64,000 nt of DNA from a virus. The DNA lies in the IMG/VR virus record IMGVR_UViG_3300037010_002844, positions 64,001-128,000 of that record, one strand, 5' to 3'. Under the pieces are notes generated by a model, which saw only the letters and a program-made list of their open reading frames with translations, was not told the DNA's origin and did not search any database. Shown piece by piece: positions 9,740 to 25,243 of this stretch (position 1 is the first letter of the stretch; each line of letters starts with the position of its first letter). Made by a program: the position numbers and the translations under genes.

Positions 9740-10067
9740 CTGCGATCCTTTCTTCCTCGAGGCACCTGTTGTCGCGCTCCGTCCTCTCCATCGTCTCTTC
9801 CCACTGTTGTTCAGCGGCTTCCCAAGCCTCGGCCCACTGTCGGAGTGCGTCCGCGTTGGGCACGCCCTCGTCATTCATAGCTTCAGGTCCTCCAAAGACG
9901 CAGAGATATGACTGTTGTGTGCCGTGGCCCCACAGTTGCACGGAGCGTAGCCCTCGTGATCGCATTCAGCTGGGCACGAGTCCGAGTGCCCGCGGTGGTT
10001 GCCAGCGAGACCTTGGCACGGACTATCTTCTCGATCAACTGTTCGTAGGTGTACATGGGTTTTATGT

Positions 10068-11198
10068 TTACGTGATTTCCCTCAACTTCCAGACCGTCGT
10101 CGACGCGCCAAAGTCGTCCCTCTTGACCTCGGCACAACACAGGATGAAGGGGTCAGGAAGCTCCTTGCCGCCCCAGACAGAAATCTTCGTGGCCTTGCCA
10201 GTGGGTCCAACCGCAAAGATTTGCACATATTCCTTGCCATTGCGGGTCTTCTTCTTGATGCCCGTCACCGGCTTGCCACCCTTCTTTGCAGCAACAGGGG
10301 CCGTGACAAACCAGACGACCGCCGTGTCACCGTGCTCCAGGTCGTCAATGCTATTGACGCCCTTCTTCTCCAAGGCAGCCAAGATTTCGATGTCAATCAT
10401 GGCGGTGACGTCCAAAGCACCGAAGACGTCGACCATATTTTGAGCACGTTCAGAAGACGACCAGTCCTCGATGTCAGCGTAGTCCCTGACCAACTGGTAG
10501 AAGTTCTTAAGGCCCTCGTGCGGGTCAGACTTCGGGTGTCGCTTGATCAACGCCCCGTGATCGATGTCGACCTCTTCGGTGACCTCGACGCCCTTGCGCT
10601 TCTTGGTCACGGTCTCCACGTGAGAACCGAAGAGGACCTCGTGCATGTGATGATAGTTGTTGAAGACCTTGCCTTCGCCCACGATGTCCATACTGCCGAA
10701 GGCACCGATCTTGACCAGGGCCTCCATCGCCTTCTTGTTGAACTTGCTGTGTTTCCACTCGAAGTTGTCATCCCACAGCAACTCCTCGATAGTGTTGTAG
10801 GGACGGTTGGCCATGATCTCTTCGACCGCCGAGTCGCCGACACCCTTGCAGGACGTCATCGACGGCATCAACTTCTTGCCGGGCAGCGCGGTCCACCCGA
10901 GCCCCGCCAGGTTGATGTCGATCGGGACGATCTGATAGCCCAAGGCCTTTACCTCGCTGAACGCCTTAGCACGTTGAGCAGGAGTGTGCGACATGCTTTC
11001 GAGATAGGCACACAGCCATTCCTCCTCGTGATATGTCATCAGCCAGGCGCACCAGAAGCTGTCAATGGCGTATGCCACTGCATGGCTGTTAGACGTCAGT
11101 ATCCCGTTAGCGAGATAGAACTGGTGATCCGGGTGATCGACTTCGAGGTCATAGGTCTGGTGTCGACCCACGGGTGTGATAGACTTGATGTTACTCAT
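10068..11198 (-). CDS. dnaE: DnaE (Pol III alpha) fragment 8 of 8: C-intein 7 plus the C-terminal extein.
   Basis: C-intein 7 at 11088-11198 is MSNIKSITPVGRHQTYDLEVDHPDHQFYLANGILTSN. The extein at 10071-11087 starts SHAVAYAIDSFWCAWLMTYHEEEW, which matches the DnaE KSHAAAYA helix onward. Confidence 0.85.
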   Translation of the reverse strand: MSNIKSITPVGRHQTYDLEVDHPDHQFYLANGILTSNSHAVAYAIDSFWCAWLMTYHEEEWLCAYLESMSHTPAQRAKAFSEVKALGYQIVPIDINLAGLGWTALPGKKLMPSMTSCKGVGDSAVEEIMANRPYNTIEELLWDDNFEWKHSKFNKKAMEALVKIGAFGSMDIVGEGKVFNNYHHMHEVLFGSHVETVTKKRKGVEVTEEVDIDHGALIKRHPKSDPHEGLKNFYQLVRDYADIEDWSSSERAQNMVDVFGALDVTAMIDIEILAALEKKGVNSIDDLEHGDTAVVWFVTAPVAAKKGGKPVTGIKKKTRNGKEYVQIFAVGPTGKATKISVWGGKELPDPFILCCAEVKRDDFGASTTVWKLREIT

Positions 11199-11419
11199 GT
11201 GAGCAGGTCCTTCAACAGGTCTTCGATCGCTCCTGCGTTCGGTTCATCAAGCATTGCTTTAGCATACTCTTCTTCAATGTACTCGTCAGTCGGCTGGAGT
11301 TCAACCTTCGTTTCGCTTTTGCGTCGGTAACGTGCCGCGGCCCGTAACAGTTCGATCGGACTCAGACCCATGCGTTGGGCAATGTCATTCAGTGCGATTT
11401 CAAACGGCGGTCTTTTCAT
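11195..11419 (-). CDS. Small hypothetical protein (possible HTH) inside the intein-7 gap.
   Basis: 74 aa, with IALNDIAQRMGLSPIELLRAAARY. Overlaps the neighbouring genes at both ends. Confidence 0.4.
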   Translation of the reverse strand: MKRPPFEIALNDIAQRMGLSPIELLRAAARYRRKSETKVELQPTDEYIEEEYAKAMLDEPNAGAIEDLLKDLLT

Positions 11420-12449
11420 ACGCTTTTCCTATCCGATGAACGCCAGGTCGAGGATCTTTCAGGATCTCAAAAAGCTTTTTCAAGCAATCAGGTTCGAAGC
11501 GACCGCCATCCTTGTATGAGAACTGATCGTAAGAAATTCGAATGAGTGTCCAATCATGTTTAGTGATGTAATCATCAAGCATTGCATCCATGCACTTCAC
11601 TCGTTCAAAATTATCCTCGCCTTTAATACGTGCATTAAAATGGATGATTCCATCAAATTCAACATAAATGTGTCTTGATCGATCGGCAATGTCAACTTGC
11701 TTTCTTTTAGATTTGTTTGGAAAAGCAACTGACTTGACGACCTGATTATGAACAAAATCATAACCTTCAACGTTTTTCAACAAATCAAACAACGCTAATT
11801 CCGGAATGCTATGCCAAATAGCATGTGCAGCTTTTGTGCACTTTTCGTAGAACTCATCGGGGTTCAACTCACGCCAACGGGCCAGGCGCTCAGCACGTGC
11901 CTTGAGTATCTCAGGCCGGGTTGACGTTAGTCTTGCAACGTCTGATGAACGTTTACGGGCTTCAGGTCGTCGATTAAGTTCTCCCATTAGTTCAGAGCGA
12001 CGTTTCCTCTCGCCCGGATTGCTCGTGATGGCCTCACTGACCGCACGGCCCATCTTTTCCTTGTAGGCAGTCAAATCATCACCGCGTGCCTTCGCTCGTT
12101 TGAGCCAGGCGAAATTCTGCCCACGATGCTTGAAACGCGCTGTCGAGACTTTCGATGTGATTGCGGCAGTCGGGTACGCTTTCAGGTATTCTTCTTTGCT
12201 CATACCATGCGTCCCCGACAAGTGCTTTGCCAGTGCCTTACCCGTGAAGCCACAGACTTGGCATGTGACACTCTCACTGTCACCGAGTATGAATCCTTGG
12301 CACCTAGCTTGGTGTTTTTCGTAGGCCTTCAGGTAGACGAAGAGCCTGCTACATCGGTCACAACGATGCTGAGGCCCCGTTCGGCAATCATCCACAGGGG
12401 CAACATCTCGTTTGTCTCCTTCGTCCTGAACTTGTGATCCCACGTGCAC
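11400..12449 (-). mobile_element. Free-standing homing-endonuclease gene in the intein-7 gap (MucR-like zinc finger plus a DUF559/Vsr-like PD-(D/E)XK domain).
   Basis: CQVCGFTGKALAKHLSGTHGMSKEEYLKAYP resembles the Ros/MucR finger. The C-terminal SIPELALFDLL...QVDIADRSRHIYVEFDGIIH resembles the DUF559/Vsr-like nuclease core. It lies between N-intein 7 and C-intein 7. Confidence 0.65.
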
Positions 12450-13030
12450 TTTACCTTCTCTCCGGTCACCAACTCCACTTCTACCAAGTCTAGCTCACCG
12501 TGGTCGTGTTTTGCAACAACAGGGACGAGGATGTTTTTACCTGAATTCTCATCACGAGACATGACCAGGTCGCCGGGTTCGATGTGTTGAAGCTGCTTTG
12601 TCTCTTTGAACGTGCCGTCTGAAAAAAAGGTATTTACTGGTTCCGAAAAGTACAAACTTTTATTGAAGCCGTAGCCCGCGAAGTACAGAATCTTGTCGTA
12701 GAGGTTGTTGGCCACCTTCTCGGTATAACCGTTGGCGATGCAACCCTTGACGAACCCGTCACGGGTCTCTTGGGCTGCCTTCTTTGCCGCCTCACCGCCC
12801 GAGATGCTGCGCTTCATGATTGCGCGACGGACCTCGTCACACTTGTCCTTCGGGAAGCCGGCAGCCTTCTCGGCGAGTTCCATCACCTGTTCCTGAAAAA
12901 TTATGCAGTTATGCACGAGAAGGCCATTTGCGAAGAAGTTGTTGTTCTTCTTGACCTGGATGTCGTACACAGGCTGTGCAGGAACACGCTTGATCGCACG
13001 GATCTTGACGGGAACTACGTCAGGCATCAC
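12329..13030 (-). CDS. dnaE: DnaE fragment 7: C-intein 6, extein, N-intein 7.
   Basis: C-intein 6 at 12908-13030 ends PVYDIQVKKNNNFFANGLLVHN. The extein at 12659-12907 is CIIFQEQVMELAE...DEVRRAIMKRS...ILYFAGYGFNK. N-intein 7 at 12332-12658 is SLYFSEPVNTFFSDG...CTWDHKF. Confidence 0.85.
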   Translation of the reverse strand: MMPDVVPVKIRAIKRVPAQPVYDIQVKKNNNFFANGLLVHNCIIFQEQVMELAEKAAGFPKDKCDEVRRAIMKRSISGGEAAKKAAQETRDGFVKGCIANGYTEKVANNLYDKILYFAGYGFNKSLYFSEPVNTFFSDGTFKETKQLQHIEPGDLVMSRDENSGKNILVPVVAKHDHGELDLVEVELVTGEKVKCTWDHKFRTKETNEMLPLWMIAERGLSIVVTDVAGSSST

Positions 13031-13344
13031 TTACGCTCCGTTTCACGATGAGTCTGACAAACAATGTGTAATGACATTGAGCGCGACAAAGCATCACTGC
13101 CTAGAACGACTCGGCAAGGGTTGAGATTTTCCCCCACATGACGCATCCATTCTTGCAAAGCGTTGATCAATCGTTGGGCTTCGTTGAAACCCTCATGCGA
13201 GGGTGGAAACTGACAGCAACCTACCAAATCTCTAGTCCCAGGATCATATGCAATGATTCGCAAATTCCCATGAACGTTCATCTCTAGCGTTAGAGATCCA
13301 TAAACATCGTCATCGATCTCGCTAGTGTAAAGATCTGCGCTCAT
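13027..13344 (-). CDS. Hypothetical protein (cargo ORF in the intein-6 gap).
   Basis: 105-aa ORF with an ATGA-type overlap to fragment 7. No motif recognised. Confidence 0.45.
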   Translation of the reverse strand: MSADLYTSEIDDDVYGSLTLEMNVHGNLRIIAYDPGTRDLVGCCQFPPSHEGFNEAQRLINALQEWMRHVGENLNPCRVVLGSDALSRSMSLHIVCQTHRETERK

Positions 13345-13345
13345 A

Positions 13346-13591
13346 TCATTTTTCTTTCATGTTCAATGATGATGCGCAGAGTTGGCACACTGGTCCATCA
13401 ACACTCAAAACACGTTGACCATGGTATTCGAGCTCCATATCATTTCCGACCTCTTCATAAGCTCGAAATGTGTCGAACCAGTCGGCATACGTGAGATCAT
13501 CACGCTTTCCAAATGCCGTATGTGACTTCATCGTGTTGATAAAGTTCTTGAACGACGTAAGCAACTCCTCTTCAAAATCATCAATCTTCAT
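13346..13591 (-). CDS. Hypothetical protein (cargo ORF in the intein-6 gap).
   Basis: 81-aa ORF starting MKIDDFEEELLTSF. No nuclease motif. Confidence 0.45.
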   Translation of the reverse strand: MKIDDFEEELLTSFKNFINTMKSHTAFGKRDDLTYADWFDTFRAYEEVGNDMELEYHGQRVLSVDGPVCQLCASSLNMKEK

Positions 13592-13662
13592 GTCTAAATT
13601 GTCCTCAATTTGAGGTGATAGTTCAAGGCATCAGACTCCCAGACGCGGTACACCGTGAAGCC

Positions 13663-13842
13663 TCAAGTTCTTGTGGCAAGCGTCCATAATTGATCAAGCC
13701 TAAATTGCTTCTTCATCGCAGGTGTTAGTTCATGCTTCGCTGGGTTACTGTGCCAATAGTCGCCGTCGTACTCGATGATGAGGTTGAGTGATGGCACGAC
13801 GAAGTAGCCTGGTTTCAGTACTTCATTCCCAAAATCTCGTCT
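13663..13842 (-). pseudogene. Remnant of a Vsr-like homing endonuclease.
   Basis: My translation of a start-less open stretch is RRDFGNEVLKPGYFVVPSLNLIIEYDGDYWHSNPAKHELTPAMKKQFRLDQLWTLATRT*. The IEYDGDYWHS core matches AIECNG(V/L)YWHSE of the two intact endonucleases at 15352 and 17837. Confidence 0.6.
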
Positions 13843-14414
13843 TCAGACGTCAGTTCACCTGCTTGCACCCAACCACGAGGCGTCATGACAAGGTGATCTT
13901 CAGTCAAAGACAAAGTTTCTCCACCCTCCAGCTCAACCTCGATGATGTCACGTACGCCGTTTGAGGCGACAGCGACAACTTCGTCCATCTCGACGGTCTT
14001 CGTCATTTCATTGTATGACGGAAGCTTAGTTCCCACCATTCCTTGTTCAACGATTTGTCTAATGGGAACCTCACCTTGCTCAGTAAGGATATGTGTGTCA
14101 CCCGTCAAACACGAGTATGTCTTCTTCAGGATGTCGTTGACGCGGTGATCGCCCCACTCCAACTCCTTGCCGTCATTCTTCGCCTCCAAGTACAGTCGAT
14201 CGACTTTGGCGGCCAAGGGACCCGGGCGATAGATGCTGGTCAGCGTCGCGATGTCGATGATGCTCTTGGGCTTGCCTTTGACAAAGAGTCGCTGAGCGCC
14301 CTGGCCCGTGCAATTGTGAACAACGACGTCGTTAGCGACGAAATTATGATGATTTCGCACCTCGATGTCGTAGACGTGGCGCTTACCCACGCTGCGTGAT
14401 GACACAAGCTTCAA
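13815..14414 (-). CDS. dnaE: DnaE fragment 6: C-intein 5, extein, N-intein 6.
   Basis: C-intein 5 at 14313-14414 is MKLVSSRSVGKRHVYDIEVRNHHNFVANDVVVHN. The extein at 14112-14312 is CTGQGAQ...LTSIYRPGPLAAK...ILKKTYS. N-intein 6 at 13818-14111 is CLTGDTHILTEQG...LTEDHLVMTPRGW. Confidence 0.85.
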   Translation of the reverse strand: MKLVSSRSVGKRHVYDIEVRNHHNFVANDVVVHNCTGQGAQRLFVKGKPKSIIDIATLTSIYRPGPLAAKVDRLYLEAKNDGKELEWGDHRVNDILKKTYSCLTGDTHILTEQGEVPIRQIVEQGMVGTKLPSYNEMTKTVEMDEVVAVASNGVRDIIEVELEGGETLSLTEDHLVMTPRGWVQAGELTSEDEILGMKY

Positions 14415-14772
14415 GCGTCGTCTCCTTCTTTTCTAGCAACTGTAGGTCATATCCACTGACAAGTGCACACTTGAGCGTCGGATGCAACGTTACGAATGCG
14501 TCAAACTTCTCCCTAGCATCATCACGCCACCAGCCCTTGACTTCCACGTACACCCGCTTAAAGAGCTCCAACGTCGGTCATTGACGATGGAAGATCATGT
14601 ACGCCTCTCTTGTGAGCTGGATCCTGATCTCCTCCTCGCTGAAGCCCTCGTCCATGCAATGACGCCAGTTGTCATACAGGTCGACGACGCCATTCTTTCC
14701 GTTCCCGTTGCCCGCTGAGTGCAGAAAGTACAAAGGGGCGCTACGATGAGCGGAGCGCGTCCGTACAATCAC
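14383..14772 (-). pseudogene. T7 endonuclease I-like homing endonuclease remnant with an in-frame TGA (intein-5 gap).
   Basis: ORFs 14578..14772 and 14383..14571 are in the same frame and are separated only by TGA 14578-14580. VYVEVKGWWRDDAREKFDAFVTLHPTL resembles T7 endonuclease I FVETKGLWESDDRKKHLLIREQHPEL as I recall it. The upstream PD motif is not preserved. Confidence 0.55.
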
Positions 14773-14856
14773 ATGTTGCGGAGTCGTGGGCCTGTTGCGT
14801 CTCTGTAAGGCGACATGGCCACGGTCGCGGCGAAACCTGCGACCAAAACGCCCGCC

Positions 14857-15333
14857 TCACGTCAATCCACGAGCTTCGTAACCACTGCTAGACCCAATCA
14901 ACTCGTCGTCTTCGGTTAGGTGCTGTGCCTCAACCCACCCGCGATTCTTCGTCAAGATGGGATGATCAGCGGTGCAGACAAGCTTCTTGCCGTCGTCGAA
15001 CACGAGCTCGATGCACTCCTTGGGTCCTTGGTCGTAAACGACGTCGACGACTGATGTGGTGAACTGCTGCTTGACTTCATCGAAGACCGTCACCTCGTCA
15101 CCGACATGGACGTCCTTGATCAACTTGTACGAGTCATCGCCCATCAGCACTGCCGTGTCCTGGTCGACGCACTGGAAGATGCCTGCCCACTTGCCTTTCT
15201 CGTAGACCTCGTAAGGTTTGGGATCGGTGAAATCAATGACGGCCGGGTGCATGTGCTGCTCGAACCAGGTCTTGATGTCATTGAATGATACCGCATTTGT
15301 ATGTGCGTCAACGTTAGCAACGACTTTTGCCAT
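14857..15333 (-). CDS. dnaE: DnaE fragment 5: degenerate C-intein stub, extein, N-intein 5.
   Basis: MAKVVANVDAHTN is a decayed block-G-like stub. The extein at 15172-15294 is AVSF...DPKPYEVYEKGKWAGIFQ. N-intein 5 at 14860-15171 is CVDQDTAVLMGDD...CTADHPILTKNRGWVEAQHLTEDDEL. Confidence 0.8.
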   Translation of the reverse strand: MAKVVANVDAHTNAVSFNDIKTWFEQHMHPAVIDFTDPKPYEVYEKGKWAGIFQCVDQDTAVLMGDDSYKLIKDVHVGDEVTVFDEVKQQFTTSVVDVVYDQGPKECIELVFDDGKKLVCTADHPILTKNRGWVEAQHLTEDDELIGSSSGYEARGLT

Positions 15334-15351
15334 GTCTTTGTAAAGGTACTT

Positions 15352-17151
15352 TCACAGGTCCATAACGTACACCGCGTTGGAGCAACCAAAGATCTTAAAA
15401 AGCCTGTGTTCCATCGCCATCTCTTCTTGTGATGCGATCCCCGGAATCGCCCTGACAGCAAATCTATCGATACGATTTTGTCCGTCCGTCCACCAAAACC
15501 TAGGCTGCGTCATGTGATCAAATCTAAAACCAGATAGTTCATACGCCCGGCCAGTGCCACCCAACCTCATGTCACGGTATGTGATCATTTTTTGGTAACC
15601 ATGCTCACGTGACCAATCCCTGGCAGCGTTGATCAACCGCGACATGCCTCCAACGACGATGGTATCGCGGGCCGTTGAAACCCGCGCCAATTCAATTGTC
15701 TTAGATCCCCACTTAGTCTGCTGGTGCGGTTTTCGCAATGTCAATGCACAAATAATGTTTCCAGCAATGTCCTCTAGCCAGAACGAATGCGACGAAGGAG
15801 TGTTTCCATCGAGGTGATTGTTCGCCATGAACTGAGCGGTGATGGCTGGACGACCGCTGCGAAGATGTAGCTTTCGTGCCATCACGCGAGTAGCAAGACC
15901 AAGCTTTACCCTGATCATGCTTTTGATGATGTTTTTCTTTACATCATGGTGCCATTCATCGTCGAAGATATGTAGCAACGACACACCACGCTCAAGAGCG
16001 CGAGTCGACTTGTCTTGGTGATACGATGGTGGAGTACCGGTCGCCTCACTGTGCCAATAGACACCGTTGCACTCGATGGCAATCCTTCCGTTACCTGACA
16101 CGATGTCCAGCTCATAAGGCGCGATTGACTGTCTGTCGTTGGCGATGGCGTTCGAATCGAGCTTGACGAAGAAATCGAACACCTCACGATGCCAGCGAGA
16201 GAAATTAGCCGGGTAGCACGTTGAACACACCTTTCCCTTGTAAAGGACGTTAAAGGGAACAATATCAGGTACGTTACAACTGACGCATGTCACATGCACC
16301 GGTGTTGAGTATCCAGCAAACTCAAATTTTTCGATGTTCCACCTCGACCGCAGTGCATCAACTCGCCGTTCGACCTCTTCGAGAGACAACCGAAAAGGAG
16401 AGTTAGTGCCGTTCTCGATAAGGCGTTTTCTAGTCTCGATGATCGAACGTTTGATATCTTCAGAATTAGCGTTCCGAGACCAATGATTCAAGCGAACGCC
16501 TTCGCCGATCCGTTCTGATCGCCGTTTGATCCTATCGTCAGTTTCTGACGTCTGACCGTGCTGCGTCCAGTGTTTTTCTACTTGCCATTTTTCAGTCAAT
16601 GCTCGAGAGATGTTATGCGCAGCTCTTGTGATAGATTCATTATTTTCTTTAGTTTGTCCTGTTCTCCAGTGCCCGTGTTTTTTGATGAAATCACGACAAC
16701 CTTGTGCGGCCCTTCGAACCGATTCAGACGTTGTTTCTGACAGCCCCTTGTTCCATGCAGGCAATGATTTTGATTTCCGGCTAAGCGCACCTCTTACTTG
16801 AGAGTTCTTCTTGCTACAAACTCCACAGAGACGTTCATATCCCGTTTGAAAGGTCATGAACTTGACCGGCCCTGAACACTGAACGCACGGTCCAGGGTGC
16901 TCTCGAAAAAGAAGGTACGCAGCCTCCGCATTGAGCCCGTGCTTTTTAAGGAGATGTGCGCGGAGCGAATTTAGGCTAGCTTTTCGCAATGGATCATTGC
17001 ACTGTGGGCACCTCGAAGGACACGATGTCATCGCCGGGCCCGAGCTCCCTCGCAAGGATGGTGCCCCTGTTGCTGGTGACGATTCGTTGGTCGCCGTAGA
17101 CGCCTCGTGTCGTTCCATCGTCGAGTTGGATCTCAAACCACCCTCTTTCAT
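15352..17151 (-). mobile_element. Free-standing homing-endonuclease gene (zinc finger, NUMOD3-like repeats, Vsr-like nuclease, conserved C-terminal domain) at junction 4.
   Basis: Contains CPQCNDPL...HLLKKH, WNKGLSETTSESV and TGQTKENNESI repeats, and YELDIVSGNGRIAIECNGVYWHSE. The C-terminus is YRDMRLGGTGRAYELSGFRF...FWWTD...IFGCSNAVYVMDL. It is a paralog of 17837..19570. The true start is probably an internal Met (17118 or 17031), because the track start overlaps fragment 4. Confidence 0.75.
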
Positions 17152-17851
17152 GTCGTTCCTTTTTGATGATGAGCTCGATGGCGCGCTCGATGAGCCGCAT
17201 CGTTTCTAGACCTAGGAGGTCGTACTTGATGAACTCTCCGATCTTCTCAAGGTGTTTATAATTTACGCCCTCGACCCAAGGTGACTGTGGCTCGCGGACG
17301 CCGGCCTTGCCTTTGGACGTCACCAAAGGCATCTTGTTGGGCAAATCGTCTGCAATCAGCACACCACCCGCGTGACGACCGAGACTACGATTCTGCTTGA
17401 AGAGGATCTTGATCGACTCGGCGACGACCGGGTACTTCTCAATGAAGCCGCGAAACGACGGGCTGACCGGCTGCTTACACTCTGGGCTACAGCCCTGGCA
17501 GATGGACTTCGACTCCGGGCCCTTAGGAGCCCTGCAGTGGAAGGCCATGGCCTCATCGTAGGTCAAGACGAACAGATTCTTGTCGTCGCCTTCCTTCATC
17601 GTCGCCTTACGGACCTCGTCCTCGACGGTCCGCGTGGCAGCGTTGGTCTCCTCGAATGGGATGCCGTAGAACTTGCCGATATCCTTTACAAGCGTTTTTA
17701 GTTTGAAACAGTTATAATTGCTGATGGGAACGACGTTTTCCCACCCAAAAAAGTTTCGAAGTTCATCAAGAACCTCATCTCGCCTGGCAAGATCGGTGTT
17801 GTGAACAACGACGCTCTTGTTGGACGCCAAAAATGAATGAACGACCATCAC
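16994..17851 (-). CDS. dnaE: DnaE fragment 4: very short C-intein 3, palm/fingers extein, degenerate N-intein remnant.
   Basis: Starts MVVHSFLASNKSVVVHN (17798-17848, ATG at 17848). The extein is TDLARRDEVLDELRNFFGWENVV...SLGRHAGGVLI...IKYDLLGLETMRLIERA. The tail at 16997-17140 is WFEIQLDDGTTRGVYGDQRIVTSNRGTILARELGPGDDIVSFEVPTVQ. Confidence 0.85.
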   Translation of the reverse strand: MMVVHSFLASNKSVVVHNTDLARRDEVLDELRNFFGWENVVPISNYNCFKLKTLVKDIGKFYGIPFEETNAATRTVEDEVRKATMKEGDDKNLFVLTYDEAMAFHCRAPKGPESKSICQGCSPECKQPVSPSFRGFIEKYPVVAESIKILFKQNRSLGRHAGGVLIADDLPNKMPLVTSKGKAGVREPQSPWVEGVNYKHLEKIGEFIKYDLLGLETMRLIERAIELIIKKERHERGWFEIQLDDGTTRGVYGDQRIVTSNRGTILARELGPGDDIVSFEVPTVQ

Positions 17852-19570
17852 ATGAATCCTAACTCAACTACAGTTGAATTTACATGCGCTCGTTGTGGTC
17901 GAAACCACGAAACGCTACGAGCATTGAAGATCCACGAGGCACGACACAGGCGAGAAGACGCCAGGCCTCCCAAACAGGTGTCAACTTACGCGTGTCCGTG
18001 GTGTGAGGCGTCATATGACAGCGGGCGTAAGTTGACATTGCACTGCACAAAAACGCACCAAAAATCACCCGTCGTTGTGTATGAAACAAGGTACCCAGGG
18101 TGCAGGAAGACGTGCATCGATTGTTGCGACTGGGTCAGGTTCATCGATCAAGAAAAAGGATACCCCGAACGGTGTCCACGTTGTAGCCGAAAACACGCAT
18201 ACGCGTCCAAGGGCACCTCGTCATGGAACAAAGGCCTGACGAAAGACAATGACGAACGCATGTCAGCCAGTGCTGCAAACATGCGAGCTCACTACAAGGA
18301 ACACGGTCACCACAACTCCGACAAGACAAAGGAAAACAACGAAAGCCTTAAACAAAAGGCGGCAAAAATCAGCGACAGCCTGCGGAGGTATTATGCAACG
18401 CACAGCGGCTGGTCACTTGGCCTGACAAAGGATACGTCTAGCATCATTGAATCTCGCAGTAAGAAGATCAGCGCTTCGTTGAAAGGACGATTCTTTAGCG
18501 ACGTAACGCTTGAAAAAATGCGCAAGGCAAAGTTGCTGACGCACGACGAGGTACAAAAACGCCTCAAAGAAAAGCAGCTTAAACTCATTGACGAATATGT
18601 CGATACTGTCACCAAAGCGCGCATCGAATGCACGATATGTTCAACAATATTTGAGCGTTGCGTTGGCGCAGTGTTCAACAACGAGGCCAAGTGTCCCACC
18701 TGCTTTCCGCCTTGGTCAGACAAAACGAGCAGGTGGCAACAGGACGTCTACGCATTTATCCAGACGCTGGCACCTGACGCAGTCCTTAGCGATCGTAAGA
18801 CGCTCGGCGGAATGGAGCTCGACATACTCATTCCATCGCGCATGTTTGCCATCGAGTGCAATGGCCTATACTGGCACAGCGAGGCCGCCAATAGATTTGA
18901 GCACGATCACGCGGAAAAGAAGAGATTGCTGTCCCTCAAAGCCGGCGTATCGCTTTTCACGTTATTTGAGGATGAGTGGCGCGACAAACGACCGATAATC
19001 GAAAGCATGTTGCGCCATCGCCTTGGGTTTTCTACCAAAGTCGATGCGCGTAAGTTGAAAGCAGAACGCTGCGAGCCCGAAGAAGTTCGAGAATTCATCA
19101 ATCAGTGCCACCTCGACGGTCACGTGAGGGCCCAATTTGCCGTGCGATTGGTAACCTCATCGGGCGAAATCGTAGGCGCCTGCAGCCTTAGGTGGGCACG
19201 AAATGGGGCAGACAGAACGACGATTGAGATCGCTCGCCTGTGCTTCAAGCTTGGCACACATGTACGAGGCGGGGTGTCAAAATTGCTATCAAAGGCAAAA
19301 GCTATAGCAAGAGAAAACAATGCAGCGAGGTTGATGTCTTACTCAGACAATCGCTTGGGAGGAAACGGTTATGCCACCTCAGGCATGAAGTTCAACGGTA
19401 CCACAGTCGCTCGCTTCTGGTGGACTGACTTCATGCATCGTTACGACAGGTTCAAGTACCGAGCCAACAAGAAGCAAGGTCTAACAGAAAAACAGGTAGC
19501 GGAGGCTGCCGGCGTTTATCGCATCTATGGCTGTAGCAACTCTCGCTACGTCTTAGACGTCACAGCGTGA
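17837..19570 (+). mobile_element. Homing-endonuclease gene on the opposite strand inside the intein-3 gap (C2H2-like finger, NUMOD3-like repeats, Vsr-like nuclease, conserved C-terminal domain).
   Basis: Contains CARCGRNHETLRALKIHEARH, then WNKGLTKDNDERM and SDKTKENNESL and GLTKDTSSIIESRSKKIS, then MELDILIPSRMFAIECNGLYWHSE. The C-terminus is YSDNRLGGNGYATSGMKF...FWWTD...IYGCSNSRYVLDV. Its ATG at 17837 overlaps, head to head, the ATG at 17848 of fragment 4. Confidence 0.8.
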
Positions 19571-19872
19571 CGCTAATGTCATCGTCAAACTTTGAGGACG
19601 CATTTTCTTTGAGCCAGAAGATGGCGTCAATTGTGCGCTCGTCGGCGTCGGCGTCATCGCACGACGTAGCCCCATAGTATGGGGGCCAAATCGTGCTCAA
19701 ACCCTTTAACGCGCAGTTTGACCTGACAATCTTGAAATTCAGGATTTTCTGCAGCTCTCGTCTGAGCTATTCTTTCCAGGCCAGACACTATCACATCATC
19801 TGCTCGGCAGAATCGCCGTTGTCTGTAAGCTGCACCGCATCAACGTTGCTCGGACACGGTCCCAACTCCAGC

Positions 19873-20610
19873 TCAAATTTCATAGTTGCGCTCGCTGTGG
19901 TCTGTTCTTCTCTTAGACGCGCACCAATCGCTGCAAAAATTGTCTCCTTCGCCACACGCAAGGAACGTGCCAGGAATGACGCCCATGCAATAACCGACGT
20001 CATGTGATGGATCACCTCCACTTAGAATGGACGTATTGAACGGTACCACGTGGAATCTGTGATCGTCTTCAACAGTCAGGTCGACGTATCTAGCGTTGGA
20101 AGAGCCCCAACCACCGTGCTCGATCGATACGACCTCAACGCTGCCGCATGATGCCATCAATTCATCTCCGACCTTAAGGTCGCGGCAGTACACGATGACG
20201 CCGTCAGCTCTGACAAATTTGTGACCGGGCACCACCAAAATGTGGCCCAACGTACCATCATTGGCCCTAACTCTGACCCAGACAGCGTCCTCGAATGGCC
20301 GCAAATTTCTAGCATAGGTCGCAGTTACTGCGTGTGGCATTCCATCGCCTCCCAGGACGACGTCGCCGACAATGATGTCAACAGCTCGCTTATGAGTGCC
20401 GTCTGTCATGACGACAAGATGGTCCTCGTGGACGCAGTCGATATCAGGAGCACCAGAGTTATGTGTCAGCACCCAATCGCTATCGTTGTTGGACACCCAA
20501 AACGTATGCTGGCCTTCGACCTCGATGTCGATGAGTTCTACACTTTCATCGACAACCTCGATAGCTTCAATTTTGGCCGTGCTTGCTGATGAGATGTTGG
20601 GTTCCTGCAT
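19873..20610 (-). CDS. dnaE: DnaE fragment 3: C-intein 2, 7-aa extein, long N-intein 3.
   Basis: C-intein 2 at 20458-20610 ends ELIDIEVEGQHTFWVSNNDSDWVLTHN. The extein SGAPDID is at 20437-20457. N-intein 3 runs down from 20436 as CVHEDHLVVMTDG...VVPGHKF...ARYVDLTVEDDHRF (to about 20053). About 60 unrelated codons follow. Confidence 0.8.
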   Translation of the reverse strand: MQEPNISSASTAKIEAIEVVDESVELIDIEVEGQHTFWVSNNDSDWVLTHNSGAPDIDCVHEDHLVVMTDGTHKRAVDIIVGDVVLGGDGMPHAVTATYARNLRPFEDAVWVRVRANDGTLGHILVVPGHKFVRADGVIVYCRDLKVGDELMASCGSVEVVSIEHGGWGSSNARYVDLTVEDDHRFHVVPFNTSILSGGDPSHDVGYCMGVIPGTFLACGEGDNFCSDWCASKRRTDHSERNYEI

Positions 20611-21532
20611 AGTCCCTGTGCTCTAGATTGGCAATCGTATGGTACAAACCTTGTCGACGAAGTTCACCATAGAAGTCATTCATGTACACGACGTCGATGC
20701 GCTGACCAGACGCCACAACGACTTCCCGTGAACGTGCGTTTGAGTTAAGCAACTTTGAGAAACGCGATTTGCCTTCTCGCACACCTTTCAACTCCACGTA
20801 TCGGTCCTCATCACTGAACCAAAAGTCTGGAGTGTAACACTTCTCTTTGCCATCGATGACAACATGGAAAGACCTATGTTCATAGAATGGCATCTTACCG
20901 AGGTGCAAGCAATATCTGTAGTAGTCGGCTTCGAACGAGCTCTTGAAGTACGGGCTGTTTAGGATGTCGGAACGAAAACACGAGCGTCCGTTCACATGTG
21001 AAGCAACCATATCACGTGACTGTGCCTCGCGGGTGCACCGTTTGGAACAGAACCGCGGCACGTAGCTCTTCTTGGTGACGATCGGTTCGCTACAAACTTC
21101 GCATACCAACGTGTGGCGGTCAAACCTCGATGCAGCGAAACATTTGGGTGAACAGAACCTGCGATTGACGTTCTTCGTTGAGAAAGTGCCTAGACACTGT
21201 ACACATGTCAGTGTACGGAGCTCATTCTTTGTCAGCGCTTTCGCAGTGTACTTGTGCCTGCACGCATTCGAACATAGTTTTCTGTTGTTGTGACACTTTG
21301 GAACGTAGAACTCATCGCCGTACTCGACGCACGTCTTCACAAGCCTCGAGGGCATGGGAGCGTGTGACATCAGCTTCCTGTGAGCGACGGCACACTCATC
21401 AGTGCAGTACGGGCGATGGAGCCTACTACCAGAACCCTTGCAGTTGGGCTCATAGTTGAACTGAAACATAATACCACAGTGTTTACACTGTTTCTCAATG
21501 ATGCTCATAGTGGTACGTGTACAGCTCGTCAC
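20567..21532 (-). mobile_element. Free-standing homing-endonuclease gene in the intein-2 gap (four CxxC...FCSxxC zinc modules plus a T7 endonuclease I-like PD-(D/E)XK domain).
   Basis: The repeats are CKHCG...RPYCTDEC, CVEYG...RKLCSNAC, CVQCL...RRFCSPKC and CEVCS...PRFCSKRC. The C-terminal KCYTPDFWFSDEDRYVELKGVREGKSRFSKL matches the T7 endo I YTPDF...FVETKG core as recalled. Confidence 0.7.
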
Positions 21533-21992
21533 TCGTCGACAGCTCAGATGTATACTTCTTCACAGGTTGTCCATCAGGACCCACTGTCAACCACACATGA
21601 TTTTCAGAACACGTGAACGTAGTACCATTCACCTTCACGCGGTACGTCTTCTCATGTTTTGTGGTCATGGTGAACGTAACTTTACGGTGTGAGCCATCCT
21701 GTGAGACAACGCTGTCACCGACTTTCACGTCTCGAAGCGCGGACGACGAACCATCTGACATCAATACCTTTGTGTCTGGCGACAGACACCTGTGAACGCT
21801 AAGGAATCGCGCGAAAGGCAGGTCCCAGAACAACGGGTCCAAGTCGGTGATGTATAGGACGTAGGCGACCAGAGAGCCACCGCCCGAATTGTGGACTGCA
21901 ATACCTTCCACGTTGTAAGTGTGGCTGTTTTCCACACACAGGTCTACGACCTCACCCTTATACGGTACGACAGTCTTACTTCTGAGCTTCAT
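21495..21992 (-). CDS. dnaE: DnaE fragment 2: C-intein 1, 33-aa extein, N-intein 2.
   Basis: C-intein 1 at 21888-21992 is [35 protein letters not shown]. The extein at 21789-21887 is [33 protein letters not shown], matching the DnaE GSAAGSLVAY..ITDIDP..FERFLNPER region. N-intein 2 at 21498-21788 is [13 protein letters not shown]...CSENHVW. Confidence 0.85.
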
Positions 21993-22076
21993 GATATGCG
22001 TTCGCTCTCTTCATGTAAGCCTTGAGATCCCTGTCTAATAGACATTTGACGAGGATCAGGTAAACTTAGTTGAGTT

Positions 22077-23762
22077 TCATTCAACCTCGATTAGGTCATC
22101 ATCTTCAGTCAAGTGTTGTGCTTCAATCCACCCACGATTCTTCGTCAGAAACTTATGCTCCTTGGTGCACCTGATCTTCTTACCGTCATCAAACTCGAGT
22201 TCTAGCAGCTCCTCATCAACCTGATACCTGAAGATCTGAGTCACCATCTGATCAACACCATATGCATCCTTGATAACGTCGCCCACCTTGATGGTGCCAA
22301 TGGGAGCATGCATGCCGTCAGCCATTAGAACCCGCGTCTCAGGAACGAAACAACCGCGGGCTGGGCCGGTAAGGCACACATTGCGTGCCAGCTCCATGAT
22401 CTTCTGGTAGGAAATGAAGTAGTCAGAGTTTTTCATCACCTTAATGACGCCGAGTTCCTCCTTGAGGCGCGCGATATACTCTGGCTTGTCTTGAAGACCA
22501 CGCTTCACCATGCCCACCTTACAAAGCGAGATGAGGTGATTGAACGAGGTCGTGCCTTCGGGCACCAACAACCTCGTCGGAAACTTGGGCGAACGATCGG
22601 GTGGAATCTCCCCGATGACACTGTGTGCGATATCGTGAGTCCGCTCAATGGCGTCACAGACGACTTCATCGTCATACCAGTCGGTGCCTTCCTTGGAGCG
22701 CTGGTACTCATCCCACATCTGTTGGGCGTTCTTCGGATAGAGCTCACACTTCAGCTCATCCTTCGACTTCGGAATCGCGTCAGGATTGATCTCCTGGTAG
22801 TTCATCCAACCCAGGCGCTTGTAGAGCTCACGGTCCTTCCAACGATCGGGATTATAGTAGTGAGCATCGCCGGTGACGATCAGCTGCTTGTTGAGCCCAT
22901 TGCGACGAGCGAACTCCAGGATCGCGCGGTTGACGAGGTTCTGCGCCGGTAGGCGATTGAACTGCAGCTCGAGGAAGTAGTTTCCTTCGCCGACTGCATC
23001 GACCATGTGCTGGTAGGTATTGCCCACCGCGACAACGCATTTCTCGAGCAGCACAGGGTCACTGAGCAACCGTGCGTCGAGCTCGTCAAACTTGTACTGT
23101 TGGATTTCCTGGAATATGGAGTACGCCGGCATGCCGCCGATACAAGCGCTGCTGACGATGATGTCGCCGCCTTTGGCTGCCTCTTTGAGGACAGCATGGT
23201 CAATGCGCGGGAACTTGTAGAAGCCCTTCAAGAATCCCTTCGAACATGCTGCGAAGATCGCCAACAGGCCCTTCTGGTTCTTGGGCAGAATGACTAGGTG
23301 ATGCCGTCGGTTGACGGGATTGAAGTGTTTGGTCGATTTGGACTCTTCCTCGTTTTCGACAGTCAAGGCGTTGGACATCTCAATGTCCTCAGTCTCATCA
23401 TTTTCATCGATGGTGGCGATGATCTTGGTCTGCAGCTTTTCCTGCTCCTTAGCAAGCTTGGCCGCAACCCTCCTGTCTCCCTTCGCCTGCTCTGCGAGTT
23501 CGACGTCCTTCTTCCATTGCTCCAGGTCGGGATGGTAGTACGCCTCGACGCCGGGAATGTACTTGAACGACTTTCCCTTATTGGCCTTGGCCCACTCCTC
23601 GACCCACAGTTGAGCGTGGGCATAGGAGTTCATGTTCCCGTGCTCGGTGATGGCATGGCCATCGAGCCCGTTCTCCATGCACCACTTGAAGTGTTCATCG
23701 GGATAGCCCAAACCATCGAAGGGCGCATTACGAGAAGCCCGTGTGGTTGTGCAAACCGACAA
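22077..23762 (-). CDS. dnaE: DnaE fragment 1: PHP and N-terminal half, plus N-intein 1.
   Basis: Contains FDGLGYPDEHFKWCMENGLDGHAITEHGNMNSYAHAQ (PHP) and ends ...CLTGPARG, followed by N-intein 1 at 22080-22352 (CFVPETRVLMADG...CTKEHKFLTKNRGWIEAQHLTEDDDLIEVE*). The track start (TTG 23762) is an artefact. The real N-terminus is in another frame (see 23728..23820). Confidence 0.85.
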   Translation of the reverse strand: MSVCTTTRASRNAPFDGLGYPDEHFKWCMENGLDGHAITEHGNMNSYAHAQLWVEEWAKANKGKSFKYIPGVEAYYHPDLEQWKKDVELAEQAKGDRRVAAKLAKEQEKLQTKIIATIDENDETEDIEMSNALTVENEEESKSTKHFNPVNRRHHLVILPKNQKGLLAIFAACSKGFLKGFYKFPRIDHAVLKEAAKGGDIIVSSACIGGMPAYSIFQEIQQYKFDELDARLLSDPVLLEKCVVAVGNTYQHMVDAVGEGNYFLELQFNRLPAQNLVNRAILEFARRNGLNKQLIVTGDAHYYNPDRWKDRELYKRLGWMNYQEINPDAIPKSKDELKCELYPKNAQQMWDEYQRSKEGTDWYDDEVVCDAIERTHDIAHSVIGEIPPDRSPKFPTRLLVPEGTTSFNHLISLCKVGMVKRGLQDKPEYIARLKEELGVIKVMKNSDYFISYQKIMELARNVCLTGPARGCFVPETRVLMADGMHAPIGTIKVGDVIKDAYGVDQMVTQIFRYQVDEELLELEFDDGKKIRCTKEHKFLTKNRGWIEAQHLTEDDDLIEVE

Positions 23763-23820
23763 ATCGTCGGGGCACTCGCACCGAGCTTCCCTTGGCGTCC
23801 TCCTTTCCTTGCTGCGTCAT
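23728..23820 (-). other. dnaE: True 5' end of dnaE (PHP motif I), out of frame with the rest of fragment 1.
   Basis: ATG 23820-23818 (ATGA overlap with the upstream stop) gives MTQQGKEDAKGSSVRVPRRFVGLHNHTGFS, then TAA at 23730-23728. Removing one base in tcg-t-aat would read ...GFSNAPFDGLGYPDEH, the canonical PHP HxH...DG continuation. Confidence 0.7.
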
Positions 23821-24137
23821 TTACCTTCCCACCTTACCTTGTCACGGTACTGTAGACCCAATTGACGGTACTGGACACCGTCAATGACCACGATAGTCAC
23901 TTCAGGAAACTTGATTCGCATCAGTGCAAGCTGATAGCACGCCTTGTCAGACCACCTTCCCTTAATTTCGTAGTACACGCTTTCATCGTGAACGAAAATC
24001 TGGTGTGTACCAAGCCGGCCATGTCGGCGATCTGCGGCAACGTGGCCATACCAATGGGTATCAGCACGCGGAGCCACTTGGGCAGCTTGTTCCAGGTGGG
24101 CTTCAGCTGGGTGACGAGCTATGAAACAACGATGCAA
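23817..24137 (-). CDS. Small T7 endonuclease I-like protein, probably a degenerate homing-endonuclease remnant.
   Basis: THQIFVHDESVYYEIKGRWSDKACYQLALMRIKFPEVTIVVIDG parallels YTPDF...FVETKGLWESDDRKK...HPELDIRIVF. The PD aspartate position is not conserved. Confidence 0.45.
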   Translation of the reverse strand: MHRCFIARHPAEAHLEQAAQVAPRADTHWYGHVAADRRHGRLGTHQIFVHDESVYYEIKGRWSDKACYQLALMRIKFPEVTIVVIDGVQYRQLGLQYRDKVRWEGK

Positions 24138-24211
24138 CCAGCGGCAACCTCGGCAGCAATGTCTGCAAGAACCATGTCGTCATGGTAAACCGGAAGCGAT
24201 CAGTTTTACAT

Positions 24212-25234: not shown

Positions 25235-25243
25235 GCGTCCATT

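Follow-up and report, generated by a model that had tools for sequence, protein, structure and literature searches.

The window considered here, a stretch of 64,000 nucleotides (nt) of viral DNA (positions 64,001 to 128,000 of IMG/VR record IMGVR_UViG_3300037010_002844), carries between positions 10068 and 23820 of its minus strand a gene for the alpha subunit of DNA polymerase III (dnaE) that is broken many times over, and the evidence from its sequence supports the reading of this locus as a fractured dnaE with six split inteins, one junction that does not splice, and homing-endonuclease genes in the gaps. We consider it likely that this is a functional, extremely fractured dnaE of an uncultured jumbo phage, with nine coding segments on eight polypeptides, the product of which would be assembled through bypass, splicing, and a clamp. 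Under the mechanism proposed here, repeated invasion by inteins and by free-standing homing-endonuclease genes would have cut dnaE into nine segments, with the endonuclease genes (four intact and four decayed, including one upstream of dnaE) acting as the selfish drivers that create and spread the breaks. The first of the eight fragments (F1 to F8) would be read across an insert of 7 nt, headed by a stop codon, after codon 30, either by a ribosomal hop or by a +1 shift; six different split inteins would then pair specifically and trans-splice, inteins 1, 2, 3, 5, and 6 through Cys1 and intein 7 through Ser1/Ser+1. Splicing would join the exteins (E1 to E8) into an E1-E2-E3-E4 chain of approximately 796 amino acids (aa), including a 49-aa tail, and a head-E5-E6-E7-E8 chain of approximately 543 aa, and the relic of a seventh split intein would hold these two chains together without a peptide bond.

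A first-pass annotation of this DNA had described eight minus-strand open reading frames (ORFs), each with one slice of a Pol III alpha sequence and all in the correct order; in our ORF listing, which covered positions 9000 to 25000, all eight are present in their places (Table 1), and the extein and intein motifs quoted in that annotation recur in the ORF translations. The count of eight applies to the ORFs and falls short for the coding segments, of which there are nine, slice 1 being itself interrupted: RFVGLHNHTGFS and the remainder of this slice occupy different frames, split by TAA at 23728-23730. Apart from this insert after codon 30, no stop codon or frameshift lies within any extein or intein half; a stop codon follows each N-terminal intein half (IntN) and a start codon precedes each C-terminal half (IntC). 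When the ORFs were cut in silico at the proposed intein boundaries and the exteins joined, the resulting spliced product of 1339 aa gave a single uninterrupted Pfam match for each DnaE domain, in the correct order (PHP, E 3e-19; DNA_pol3_alpha, positions 2-260 of 260, E 2.7e-44; finger, E 1.8e-32; HHH_6, E 2e-9), and aligned with Thermus aquaticus (Taq) Pol III alpha (2hpi; E 5e-84) in blocks that are continuous over the junctions. A search of 5.8 billion proteins identified over 100 homologues without interruption, 1150-1280 aa in length, on contigs of up to 361 kb. In alignment with 13 of these intact homologues, the joined exteins showed 54-78% identity and zero gaps at the six splice junctions, and the concatenation proposed as a check in the first-pass annotation is thus colinear with DnaE. 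By a leave-one-out count, the joined DnaE differs at 10 of the 422 positions that are invariant in the 13 intact homologues, all ten changes being conservative, and the same test on the 12 closest intact homologues gave 0-13 changes; because so few invariant positions are changed, as in intact proteins, the exteins are under normal purifying selection, with a constraint equal to that on the intact homologues.

The PDxD.D motif of the palm, invariant across the family, is present in the joined product, where SGAPDID/TDL (slashes here and below mark extein or intein boundaries) aligns to Taq MPDIDTD, a motif that we take to hold two catalytic aspartates of the Pol III alpha palm. Fragment F3, which consists of IntC2, the seven extein residues SGAPDID, and IntN3, would contribute only these seven residues to the polymerase; three-part proteins of the F3 type with a 7-aa extein also occur in four other protein clusters (54-62% identity). 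Inspection for Shine-Dalgarno sequences identified good sites upstream of F6, F7, F8, and the endonuclease gene of gap 4 (G4) and was otherwise only partly informative, and a scan for promoter and terminator consensus sequences gave counts no better than those of shuffles. Since no Rfam family, introns included, reached the gathering score in positions 9000-25000, RNA splicing is not the route of repair; no tRNAs were found in the window.

The six junctions at which intein termini are divided between neighbouring ORFs were already noted in the first-pass annotation, and catalytic residues are intact at all six: each intein keeps Cys or Ser as residue 1, the block-B His, the terminal Asn, and Ser, Thr, or Cys at position +1 (Table 1). 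Intein 3 is without the block-B Thr and intein 7 without the penultimate His, and both absences are known intein variations. The search with intein profiles suggested earlier yielded HINT-type Pfam matches (Intein_splicing, Hint, Hom_end_hint, PT-HINT) on the predicted halves in F1, F2, F3, F5, F6, and F7, mostly below the curated cut-offs, as expected because the queries are half-domains; the IntC7 half in F8 had no HINT match in the Pfam search. Pairwise identity among the six IntN is 16-48%, with inteins 1 and 5 as the closest pair (48%), and because of this low identity the six inteins are considered distinct. At site 2, the +1 residue is Ser in intein-bearing alleles and Lys in most intein-free homologues; the corresponding residues at sites 5 and 6 are Cys with the intein and, in most homologues without it, Leu or Gly. 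That the +1 nucleophile follows intein presence in these alignments serves as an internal control; at the dead site (junction 4, described below), the residue is Ala. From these features we infer that the six predicted inteins trans-splice and that their pairs are mutually orthogonal. Intein 7, with Ser1, Ser+1, and a C-terminal Ser-Asn, is in addition a candidate for a naturally split intein with cysteine-independent chemistry; cysteine-independent split inteins have been described as very rare (PMC10189870).

Intein 3 departs from the others in the position of its split. Its C-half is not an ordinary half of about 35 aa; it is only 17-18 aa long, and the 187-aa N-half already includes block F. 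Counted from its ATG, the C-half is 17 aa (MVVHSFLASNKSVVVHN), and the frame is closed immediately upstream. A short C-half of the same kind (M..HSFL....SVVVHN/T) starts the downstream fragment in the related loci L087, L089, and L090, with a stop codon 6-7 codons upstream in L087 and L090. Cys1, HKF, and block F (VD.TV..DH.F..VPF) are invariant in all 11 available IntN3 sequences; IntN3 is approximately 150 aa in relatives without a Cys-rich tail, versus 187 aa in the window. An AlphaFold2 model of F3 built on this 11-sequence alignment reached a predicted local distance difference test score (pLDDT) of 82-91 over residues 61-160, with IntC2 disordered, and Foldseek matched the model to whole mini-inteins and bacterial intein-like (BIL) domains, including gp41-1, NpuDnaB, and 2lwy, with target-normalised template modelling (TM) scores of 0.66-0.79 and E ~5e-7. 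Because the model matches whole mini-inteins, IntN3 is modelled as carrying almost the entire HINT fold, to which the C-fragment would add no more than the final strand and the Asn. In L089, dnaE is broken at intein 3 and intein 1 and nowhere else, and on this ground intein 3 is predicted to work. Conserved in three relatives (P0122-P0124), the Cys-rich tail of IntN3 (C..IPGTF.ACGE..N.CSD.C; positions 19876-20034, the C-terminal ~50 aa of F3) is similar to the FCS..C zinc-finger repeats in the endonuclease of gap 2 and could represent either what is left of a fused endonuclease or a zinc ribbon with a function of its own.

Junction 4 had been described as a dead junction. Its non-splicing nature stands, yet it is not a mere gap, since the sequence at the F4/F5 boundary is derived from an intein. 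Relative to every intact homologue, this boundary contains a 62-residue insertion, of which 49 aa form the tail of F4 and 13 aa the head of F5. A homologous tail ends the upstream fragment in seven relatives, and a profile of the eight tails, including that of the window, matches the IntN profile (hhalign probability 96.4%, E 1.2e-9) over the C-terminal half only, a match that spans the block-B region and the last long strand. The tail starts with Gly-Trp, without Cys1 or block A, YGDQR stands in place of the block-B T..H, and the head is followed by Ala, so that this junction has neither the nucleophiles nor the T..H of a functional intein. Heads of the F5 type in L054, L041, and L090 (MAKITSIT.., MSKITSIN.., and MAKVSSIT..) suggest a resemblance to the strand with which canonical C-halves open (MSNIKSIT in intein 7, for example), in a segment that is too short for statistics. 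The alternative interpretation of MAKVVANVDAHTN as a remnant of block G ('HTN') was rejected, as the heads of the relatives (MAKITSIT...) look like the first strand of IntC. The best reading of junction 4 appears to be a relic that keeps the two strands that zip split-intein halves together and has lost all catalytic chemistry; by analogy with an endonuclease-split phage enzyme (see below), it probably joins the two chains non-covalently, as a clamp. The longest ORF of the gap-4 endonuclease overlaps the whole dead-intein tail of F4 in another frame (16994-17151, 158 nt), and with the start chosen by the gene caller, 40 codons later, the overlap with F4 is 38 nt.

Endonuclease genes or their remains, previously reported for five of the seven gaps, were found in all seven, as four intact genes and three 3' remnants, the latter detected by tblastn with intact genes from the equivalent gaps of relatives (Table 1). 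The genes of gaps 2 and 7 have orthologues in the equivalent gaps of L060 (69% and 55% identical, respectively), the gap-3 gene is 32% identical to the gap-4 gene, the gap-7 protein matches the ROS_MUCR zinc finger (E 3e-6), and the remnants of gaps 5 and 6 also match PHROGs, namely phrog_945 (weakly) and phrog_559 and phrog_3339, respectively. Vsr-like motifs were identified as ECNG(L/V)YWHSE in the gap-3 and gap-4 genes (G3 and G4) and as EYDGDYWH in the gap-6 remnant; matches to the Vsr family are weak (Pfam MTES_1575, E 0.004-0.006; I-Bth0305I, 3r3p, E 0.8), the strong matches being to PHROGs only, and sequence searches of the PDB with the gap endonucleases returned either nothing or only the match to I-Bth0305I at E ~0.8. 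The gap-2 gene (G2) and the endonuclease upstream of dnaE look like another type, PD-(D/E)xK. Three small minus-strand ORFs (13346-13591, 13027-13344, and 11195-11419) travel with the gaps, with identities of 85%, 36%, and 51%, respectively, to L060, and the 74-aa ORF among them ends in an ATGA that overlaps the start of F8, which suggests translational coupling.

Table 1. Coding segments, ORFs, predicted intein halves, and endonuclease genes of the dnaE region, in the 5' to 3' order of dnaE
Feature	Position	Strand	Description and evidence
Upstream endonuclease remnant	23817-24137	minus	PD-(D/E)xK-type homing endonuclease, C-terminal remnant, directly 5' of dnaE
dnaE codons 1-30	23731-23820	minus	Mini-ORF ending ...RFVGLHNHTGFS; first PHP metal-binding motif; aligns to N-termini of intact homologues
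Insertion TAATGCG	23724-23730	minus	7 nt; stop and +1 frame change; candidate take-off UCG, landing GCG
F1 ORF	22077-23762	minus	
Extein 1 continued	22353-23723	minus	PFDG...LTGPARG; PHP domain and start of palm; Pfam, alignment
Intein 1 N-half	22080-22352	minus	91 aa; Cys1, block B CTKEH; same IntN at same site in L054, L060, L087, L089
Gap-1 endonuclease, 3' remnant	21961-22047	minus	Last ~30 aa of L060 and L054 genes, 61-69% identity, E ~6e-7
F2 ORF	21495-21992	minus	
Intein 1 C-half	21888-21992	minus	35 aa; ...AVHN; VHN/S, +1 Ser
Extein 2	21789-21887	minus	33 aa; SGGGSLVAY...LSVHR; alignment
Intein 2 N-half	21498-21788	minus	97 aa; Cys1, block B CSENH; Hom_end_hint E 2.5e-11
Gap-2 endonuclease, intact	20567-21532	minus	321 aa; zinc-finger rich; phrog_1271 'HNH endonuclease' E 2.3e-16
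F3 ORF	19873-20610	minus	
Intein 2 C-half	20458-20610	minus	51 aa; ...LTHN; THN/S, +1 Ser; conserved in P0125, P0126, P0128, P0129
Extein 3	20437-20457	minus	7 aa; SGAPDID; aligns to Taq MPDIDTD
Intein 3 N-half	19876-20436	minus	187 aa; Cys1, blocks A, B (PGHKF), and F; Cys-rich tail
Gap-3 homing endonuclease, intact	17837-19570	plus	577 aa; phrog_3339 'homing endonuclease' E 3.5e-59
F4 ORF	16994-17851	minus	
Intein 3 C-half	17798-17851	minus	17-18 aa; (V)MVVHSFLASNKSVVVHN; VHN/T, +1 Thr
Extein 4	17144-17797	minus	TDLARRD...IIKKERHER; remaining palm/thumb; Pfam, alignment
F4 C-terminal tail	16997-17143	minus	49 aa; GWFEIQLDDG...PTVQ; truncated, catalytically dead intein N-half
Gap-4 homing endonuclease, intact	15352-17151	minus	599-aa ORF; phrog_3339 E 1e-59
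F5 ORF	14857-15333	minus	
F5 N-terminal head	15295-15333	minus	13 aa; MAKVVANVDAHTN, then Ala, no nucleophile
Extein 5	15172-15294	minus	AVSFNDIK...WAGIFQ; alignment
Intein 5 N-half	14860-15171	minus	104 aa; Cys1, block B CTADH; same site in P0068/L091
Gap-5 endonuclease, 3' remnant	14386-14553	minus	Residues 233-288 of the 288-aa L091 gene, 55% identity, E 3.5e-17
F6 ORF	13815-14414	minus	
Intein 5 C-half	14313-14414	minus	34 aa; TTG start, AAGGAG upstream; ...VVHN; VHN/C, +1 Cys
Extein 6	14112-14312	minus	CTGQGA...KKTYS; fingers; Pfam, alignment
Intein 6 N-half	13818-14111	minus	98 aa; Cys1, block B LTEDH; same site in P0046, P0052, P0055, P0060, P0064, P0077, L034, L050, L060, L091
Gap-6 endonuclease, 3' remnant	13597-13803	minus	Vsr-like; EYDGDYWH; L060 and L091 genes, 55-64%, E 1e-21 to 7e-28
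F7 ORF	12329-13030	minus	
Intein 6 C-half	12908-13030	minus	40-41 aa; ...LVHN; VHN/C, +1 Cys
Extein 7	12659-12907	minus	CIIFQEQVM...FAGYGFNK; Pfam, alignment
Intein 7 N-half	12332-12658	minus	109 aa; Ser1, block B CTWDH; same site in P0040, P0056, P0081, L060
Gap-7 endonuclease, intact	11400-12449	minus	349-aa ORF; zinc-finger N-terminus, EFDG motif; phrog_559 E 9e-8
F8 ORF	10068-11198	minus	
Intein 7 C-half	11088-11198	minus	37 aa; ...LTSN; TSN/S, +1 Ser
Extein 8	10068-11087	minus	SHAVAYA... to C-terminus, plus stop; HhH and OB region; HHH_6, alignment

The remaining interruption lies near the start of the gene. Reading from the dnaE start (ATG at 23820) runs through RFVGLHNHTGFS into the TAA, and PFDGLGYPDEHF... 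resumes in another frame; the responsible insertion (TAATGCG between TCG and CCC) is absent from the 13 aligned intact homologues and identical in the independent contigs L005 and L006. Directly upstream, positions 23820-24008 match residues 206-270 of an intact 270-aa homologue in L054 (48% identity, tblastn), the family of which matches PHROG endonuclease/resolvase families (E ~1e-10). Five of 48 relatives carry an insert at the same codon, and all five have a homologous upstream PD-(D/E)xK-like gene, versus one of the 43 uninterrupted relatives with a partial upstream gene and 42 with neither (Fisher p 3.5e-6). A scan of IMG/VR with the upstream endonuclease family identified 28 copies that are followed by a dnaE start, 23 of them with an insert. 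In the set of loci concerned (the window, L034, L038, L054, L055, and L092-L138), the inserts directly follow the Ser codon of an H.H..FS motif, and 13 distinct inserts, including the TAATGCG of the window, were found, with lengths of 5, 7, 8, 9, 10, 15, or 16 nt. All 13 begin with a stop codon (TAA, TAG, or TGA), and all 13 end in a landing codon that matches the take-off Ser codon at two or more positions (UCN to UCU/UCA; UCG to ACG/GCG/UUG; UCC to ACC), which has a chance probability of 3e-11 with the types treated as independent and shared ancestry uncorrected; reading resumes in the DnaE frame after every insert length. The 16 codons upstream of the insert diverge mainly synonymously (10 synonymous and 2 nonsynonymous differences between the window and L054), and by this pattern the mini-ORF before the insert is under purifying selection.

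The locus thus combines the features expected of translational bypass, i.e., a stop codon after the take-off codon, a near-cognate landing codon, and an adjacent mobile endonuclease gene, and we hypothesize that the stop-initiated inserts represent a candidate short-gap family of take-off/landing bypass sites; in the window alone, a +1 shift at UCG-UAA-U would fit as well. An explanation that does without recoding would have translation stop after codon 30 and a truncated DnaE produced from a downstream start (TTG at 23762 or the ATG of MENGLD), with the insert as a scar that protects against the endonuclease. The window does offer such in-frame TTG and ATG candidates, gene callers do place the start of F1 at the downstream ATG (533 aa), the landing codon of the window is imperfect, and no stimulatory RNA structure was found, in that no significant or conserved RNA fold was detected at the candidate bypass sites (z -1.5 to +0.8). 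Several relatives, e.g., L054 and L034, nevertheless have no start codon near the point of resumption, the 16 codons before the insert are conserved as protein, and all 13 inserts obey, at every length, a rule of Ser codon, stop, spacer, near-cognate codon, and DnaE frame, for which reasons we regard translation without recoding as unlikely, though it deserves to be kept in view alongside bypass. Two further observations concern these inserts. In two frame-shifting cases, the insert is complementary to a stretch approximately 50 nt downstream (window, AUGCGCC.../...GGUGCAU, 23680-23735; L054, GAAGACACU/GGUGUCUUC, 5620-5685), with both folds non-significant versus shuffles. Furthermore, five dnaE genes with the upstream endonuclease (L096, L118, L128, L129, and L123) have no insert, and four of these five encode the critical Ser as AGY and not UCN, which may reflect an alternative escape from the endonuclease or avoidance of take-off.

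The locus could also be seen as a decaying pseudogene, a graveyard of selfish elements in a phage that replicates with a PolA-like gene product or with the Pol III of its host. Such decay would account for the remnants among the endonuclease genes (three in the gaps and one upstream), for the dead intein, and for an N-terminus broken by a stop codon and a frameshift, and a PolA-like ORF does lie at 55232-56458. We consider it distinctly improbable, given that 412 of the 422 family-invariant residues are kept, as in intact homologues, that the catalytic residues are intact in all six inteins, that the mini-ORF is under purifying selection, and that the sole stop and frameshift is the codon-30 insert, which recurs as 13 variants in relatives; moreover, the same breaks, including the dead junction and the insert, are maintained in phages that are only 44-72% identical.

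Assembly at all seven junctions could, in principle, be purely non-covalent, with the intein halves serving as dimerisation domains. Junction 4, if functional, evidently works in this manner, and rescue of this type is documented for the endonuclease-split NrdA of phage Aeh1 (PMC3045599). At the other six junctions, however, the catalytic residues that junction 4 alone has lost are retained, and the +1 nucleophile is found exactly where an intein is present. A 7-residue extein with the PDID motif, moreover, the catalytic role of which is in part our assumption, could hardly be positioned unless ligated; non-covalent assembly throughout is therefore very improbable, and splicing at six junctions with a clamp at the seventh is preferred.

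An artefact of assembly, i.e., a chimera of variants with one intein each, could be suspected from the metagenomic origin of the data and the existence of relatives with subsets of the inteins and has next to no likelihood, as contigs from four read sets agree with the window over long stretches, the fragment proteins recur on 6-7 contigs, three of them of 0.2-1 Mb, and the related locus L060 has five breaks on a single 151-kb contig. The check for mis-assembly that had been recommended was carried out with contigs: six loci from four read sets (Logan SRR11723144, SRR11727985, and SRR11727740; JGI 3300036715) are 99.98-100% identical to positions 9000-25500 where they cover them, in stretches of ~3.3 to 14 kb, with L005 alone covering ~14 kb, and because of this agreement the fractured locus is not a mis-assembly. 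The exact F8 and F2 proteins are those on the 6-7 Logan/JGI contigs, and the exact F3 protein is on six contigs, the longest of 309 kb.

The majority of the best 80 IMG/VR relatives have an unbroken dnaE. Among the relatives examined, the window has the most breaks, followed by L060 with five (sites 1, 2, 4, 6, and 7; IMG/VR contig, ~70% protein identity); L054 is broken at the codon-30 insert and sites 1 and 4, L089 at sites 1 and 3, L091 at sites 5 and 6, L034 at the codon-30 insert and site 6, L041 at site 4, L050 and L064 at site 6, and L055 at the codon-30 insert and a further site near residue 226. This last site is that of a split intein inside the PHP domain (L055 10088-10975), after ...VVTSA/C, at approximately residue 226 of the window protein, and because L055 adds this site, the dnaE family has at least eight intein insertion points. 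In L087 (10001-17079) and L090 (8441-17722), the dnaE fragments lie 5-6 kb apart with unrelated genes between them (DnaJ-like, UDP-galactopyranose mutase-like, and many small ORFs); because kilobases of unrelated genes separate them, these fragments must act in trans. This dispersal corresponds to what Dassa et al. predicted as an 'uncoupling' stage (PMC2677866).

Outside this region, the window consists of a phage replication module, with genes for ribonucleotide reductase (RNR), a DnaB-like helicase, RecA/UvsX, a 5'-3' exonuclease, and single-stranded DNA-binding protein. The gene for the RNR large subunit (44405-48046, minus strand, 1213 aa) contains a contiguous intein of ~350 aa (Pfam Intein_splicing, residues 305-653), and because this intein is unsplit, the genome appears to hold cis- as well as trans-splicing inteins. 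Between the 5'-3' exonuclease and recA-like genes (50601-51462, plus strand) are two ORFs, the second of which has a Vsr-like nuclease motif akin to those of G3 and the gap-6 endonuclease (tblastn, 51253-51429) and is probably a free-standing homing endonuclease. With regard to cultured phages, megablast with the 14-kb region found no relatives and tblastn found only DnaE of up to 26% identity.

Several points weigh against the proposed scheme as a whole or against parts of it. Translational bypass, splicing at six junctions, orthogonality of the inteins, and non-covalent joining are all predictions, and we infer the entire scheme from metagenomic DNA; the read sets that confirm the assembly may come from related samples. 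Inteins 1 and 5, at 48% identity in IntN, may cross-react. Intein 3 has an H-x-F motif duplicated across its halves (HRFHVV in the N-half and HSFLAS in the C-half), and it is predicted to be active with a C-fragment of just 17 aa. The landing codon GCG of the window matches the take-off codon UCG at two positions only, with a fold z of ~0. Degenerate elements are present in the locus: of the eight endonuclease genes associated with it, four have decayed, and catalysis has been lost at one junction. Finally, the essentiality of dnaE is assumed in a genome that also has the family-A polymerase-like ORF mentioned above.

If it is correct, the proposed assembly shows how far selfish elements can invade an essential gene without killing it, with eight interruptions of three mechanistic kinds, and the relatives, with their intermediate stages and later dispersal of fragments, provide a natural series for the gene-breaking model of 2009. 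For protein engineering, the locus would offer six natural split inteins presumably selected for side-by-side use without cross-reaction, in a toolset that would include a Ser1/Ser+1 intein, an intein with a 17-aa C-fragment, and an intein-derived non-covalent docking pair, with potential uses in multi-fragment protein ligation and semisynthesis. If bypassed, the codon-30 inserts would mean that T4 gene 60 no longer stands almost alone among phages as a case of programmed ribosome hopping, and they would supply 13 natural variants for comparing gap lengths and landing codons.

Fractured genes have been known since 2009, dnaE included, and the gene described here is an extreme variant of this kind; no other natural gene of the kind seen in this analysis is broken into as many pieces. 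The first-pass annotation knew of no essential replicase gene with so many inteins in series; extreme the series is, but with five breaks in L060 and one-intein dnaE genes reported in 2009 it is not unique. Our literature search found no report of three or more split inteins in one natural gene, nor of bypass in dnaE, an absence of evidence within a limited literature. Relative to the literature searched, six serial split inteins, a 7-aa extein, an intein relic apparently reused as a non-covalent clamp and retained by seven relatives, a naturally split intein whose C-fragment has 17 aa, and stop-initiated inserts linked to an upstream endonuclease would be new. The strongest version of the proposal, i.e., one gene repaired by three mechanisms, two of them new in nature (a PD-(D/E)xK-mobilised family of bypass sites of 5-16 nt and a split intein with a 17-residue C-fragment), together with the clamp and six co-evolved, mutually orthogonal inteins, is put forward only tentatively, since we hold it to be somewhat more apt to fail than to stand in full.

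The closest known systems are the fractured genes described in 2009 from 26 loci of the Global Ocean Sampling (GOS) data, three of them dnaE, in which a free-standing gene of the GIY-YIG or Vsr-like type lies between the intein halves; each published locus has one split intein, with DnaE-1 also including part of a second intein (PMC2677866). As in those loci, the upstream ORF closes with an IntN, the endonuclease gene comes next and often overlaps it, and the following ORF opens with an IntC, an arrangement found here at six junctions, with an endonuclease gene or remnant in all seven gaps; dnaE as host gene, the Vsr-like motif E.DG.YWH in several gaps, and a phage-like aquatic source are likewise shared. 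Unlike those loci, the present gene has six split inteins in series, a dead seventh, one atypical split, and an extein of just 7 aa, and its endonuclease genes include decayed ones and one on the opposite strand. The cyanobacterial Ssp and Npu DnaE inteins are also natural split inteins in Pol III alpha near FAxYGFNKSH, where trans-splicing restores the polymerase; in contrast to the gene described here, they represent a single split, with the halves at distant loci and no endonuclease gene. Site 7 (GFNK/SHA) follows the cyanobacterial site (...AEY/CFNK) by a few residues.

For junction 4, the best analogue is NrdA of phage Aeh1, which is split by mobE and rescued without splicing and in which short C- and N-terminal tails derived from the break are required for assembly (Crona et al. 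2011, PMC3045599); unlike in Aeh1, the tails at junction 4 are derived from an intein and stand beside six junctions that are predicted to splice. For the codon-30 insert, the T4 gene 60/mobA cassette (Bonocora et al. 2011), homologues of which have been found in topoisomerase genes only (Manning & Atkins 2022, bioRxiv 10.1101/2022.08.31.505936), is similar in that an endonuclease gene adjoins a short insert in a replication gene, a stop codon directly follows the take-off codon, take-off and landing codons are matched or wobble-related, and the distribution is patchy. The dnaE inserts differ in that the gap is 5-16 nt versus 50 nt, lies 16-30 codons from the start versus at codon 46, is in dnaE and not in a topoisomerase gene, and is accompanied by an unrelated PD-(D/E)xK-like endonuclease and by no conserved hairpin; some landing codons match at positions 2 and 3 only, also unlike gene 60. 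The dnaE insert would thus be at most analogous to gene 60 and not a member of its cassette.

Natural split inteins fall into a canonical class (~100 aa plus 35-40 aa) and an atypical class in which the N-fragment is very short, the latter exemplified by AceL-TerL, GOS-TerL, VidaL, and PolB16 OarG, with N-fragments of 15-37 aa and a long C-fragment (PMC10189870). Like these four, intein 3 is broken away from the canonical site of endonuclease insertion, and it is their mirror image, with an N-fragment of 135-187 aa and a C-fragment of 17 aa. To our knowledge, a long N-fragment with a 17-aa C-fragment has otherwise been seen only in engineered splits, e.g., Ssp DnaB S11 and Npu C15. Genes with several inteins exist as well, with three DnaE inteins in Trichodesmium. 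Four MCM intein sites have been described in Haloarchaea (PMC10643990). Such multi-intein genes resemble the present dnaE in that several inteins occupy conserved active-site motifs of one replication gene; they are mostly contiguous and cis-splicing, whereas the six inteins described here are all split onto separate polypeptides.

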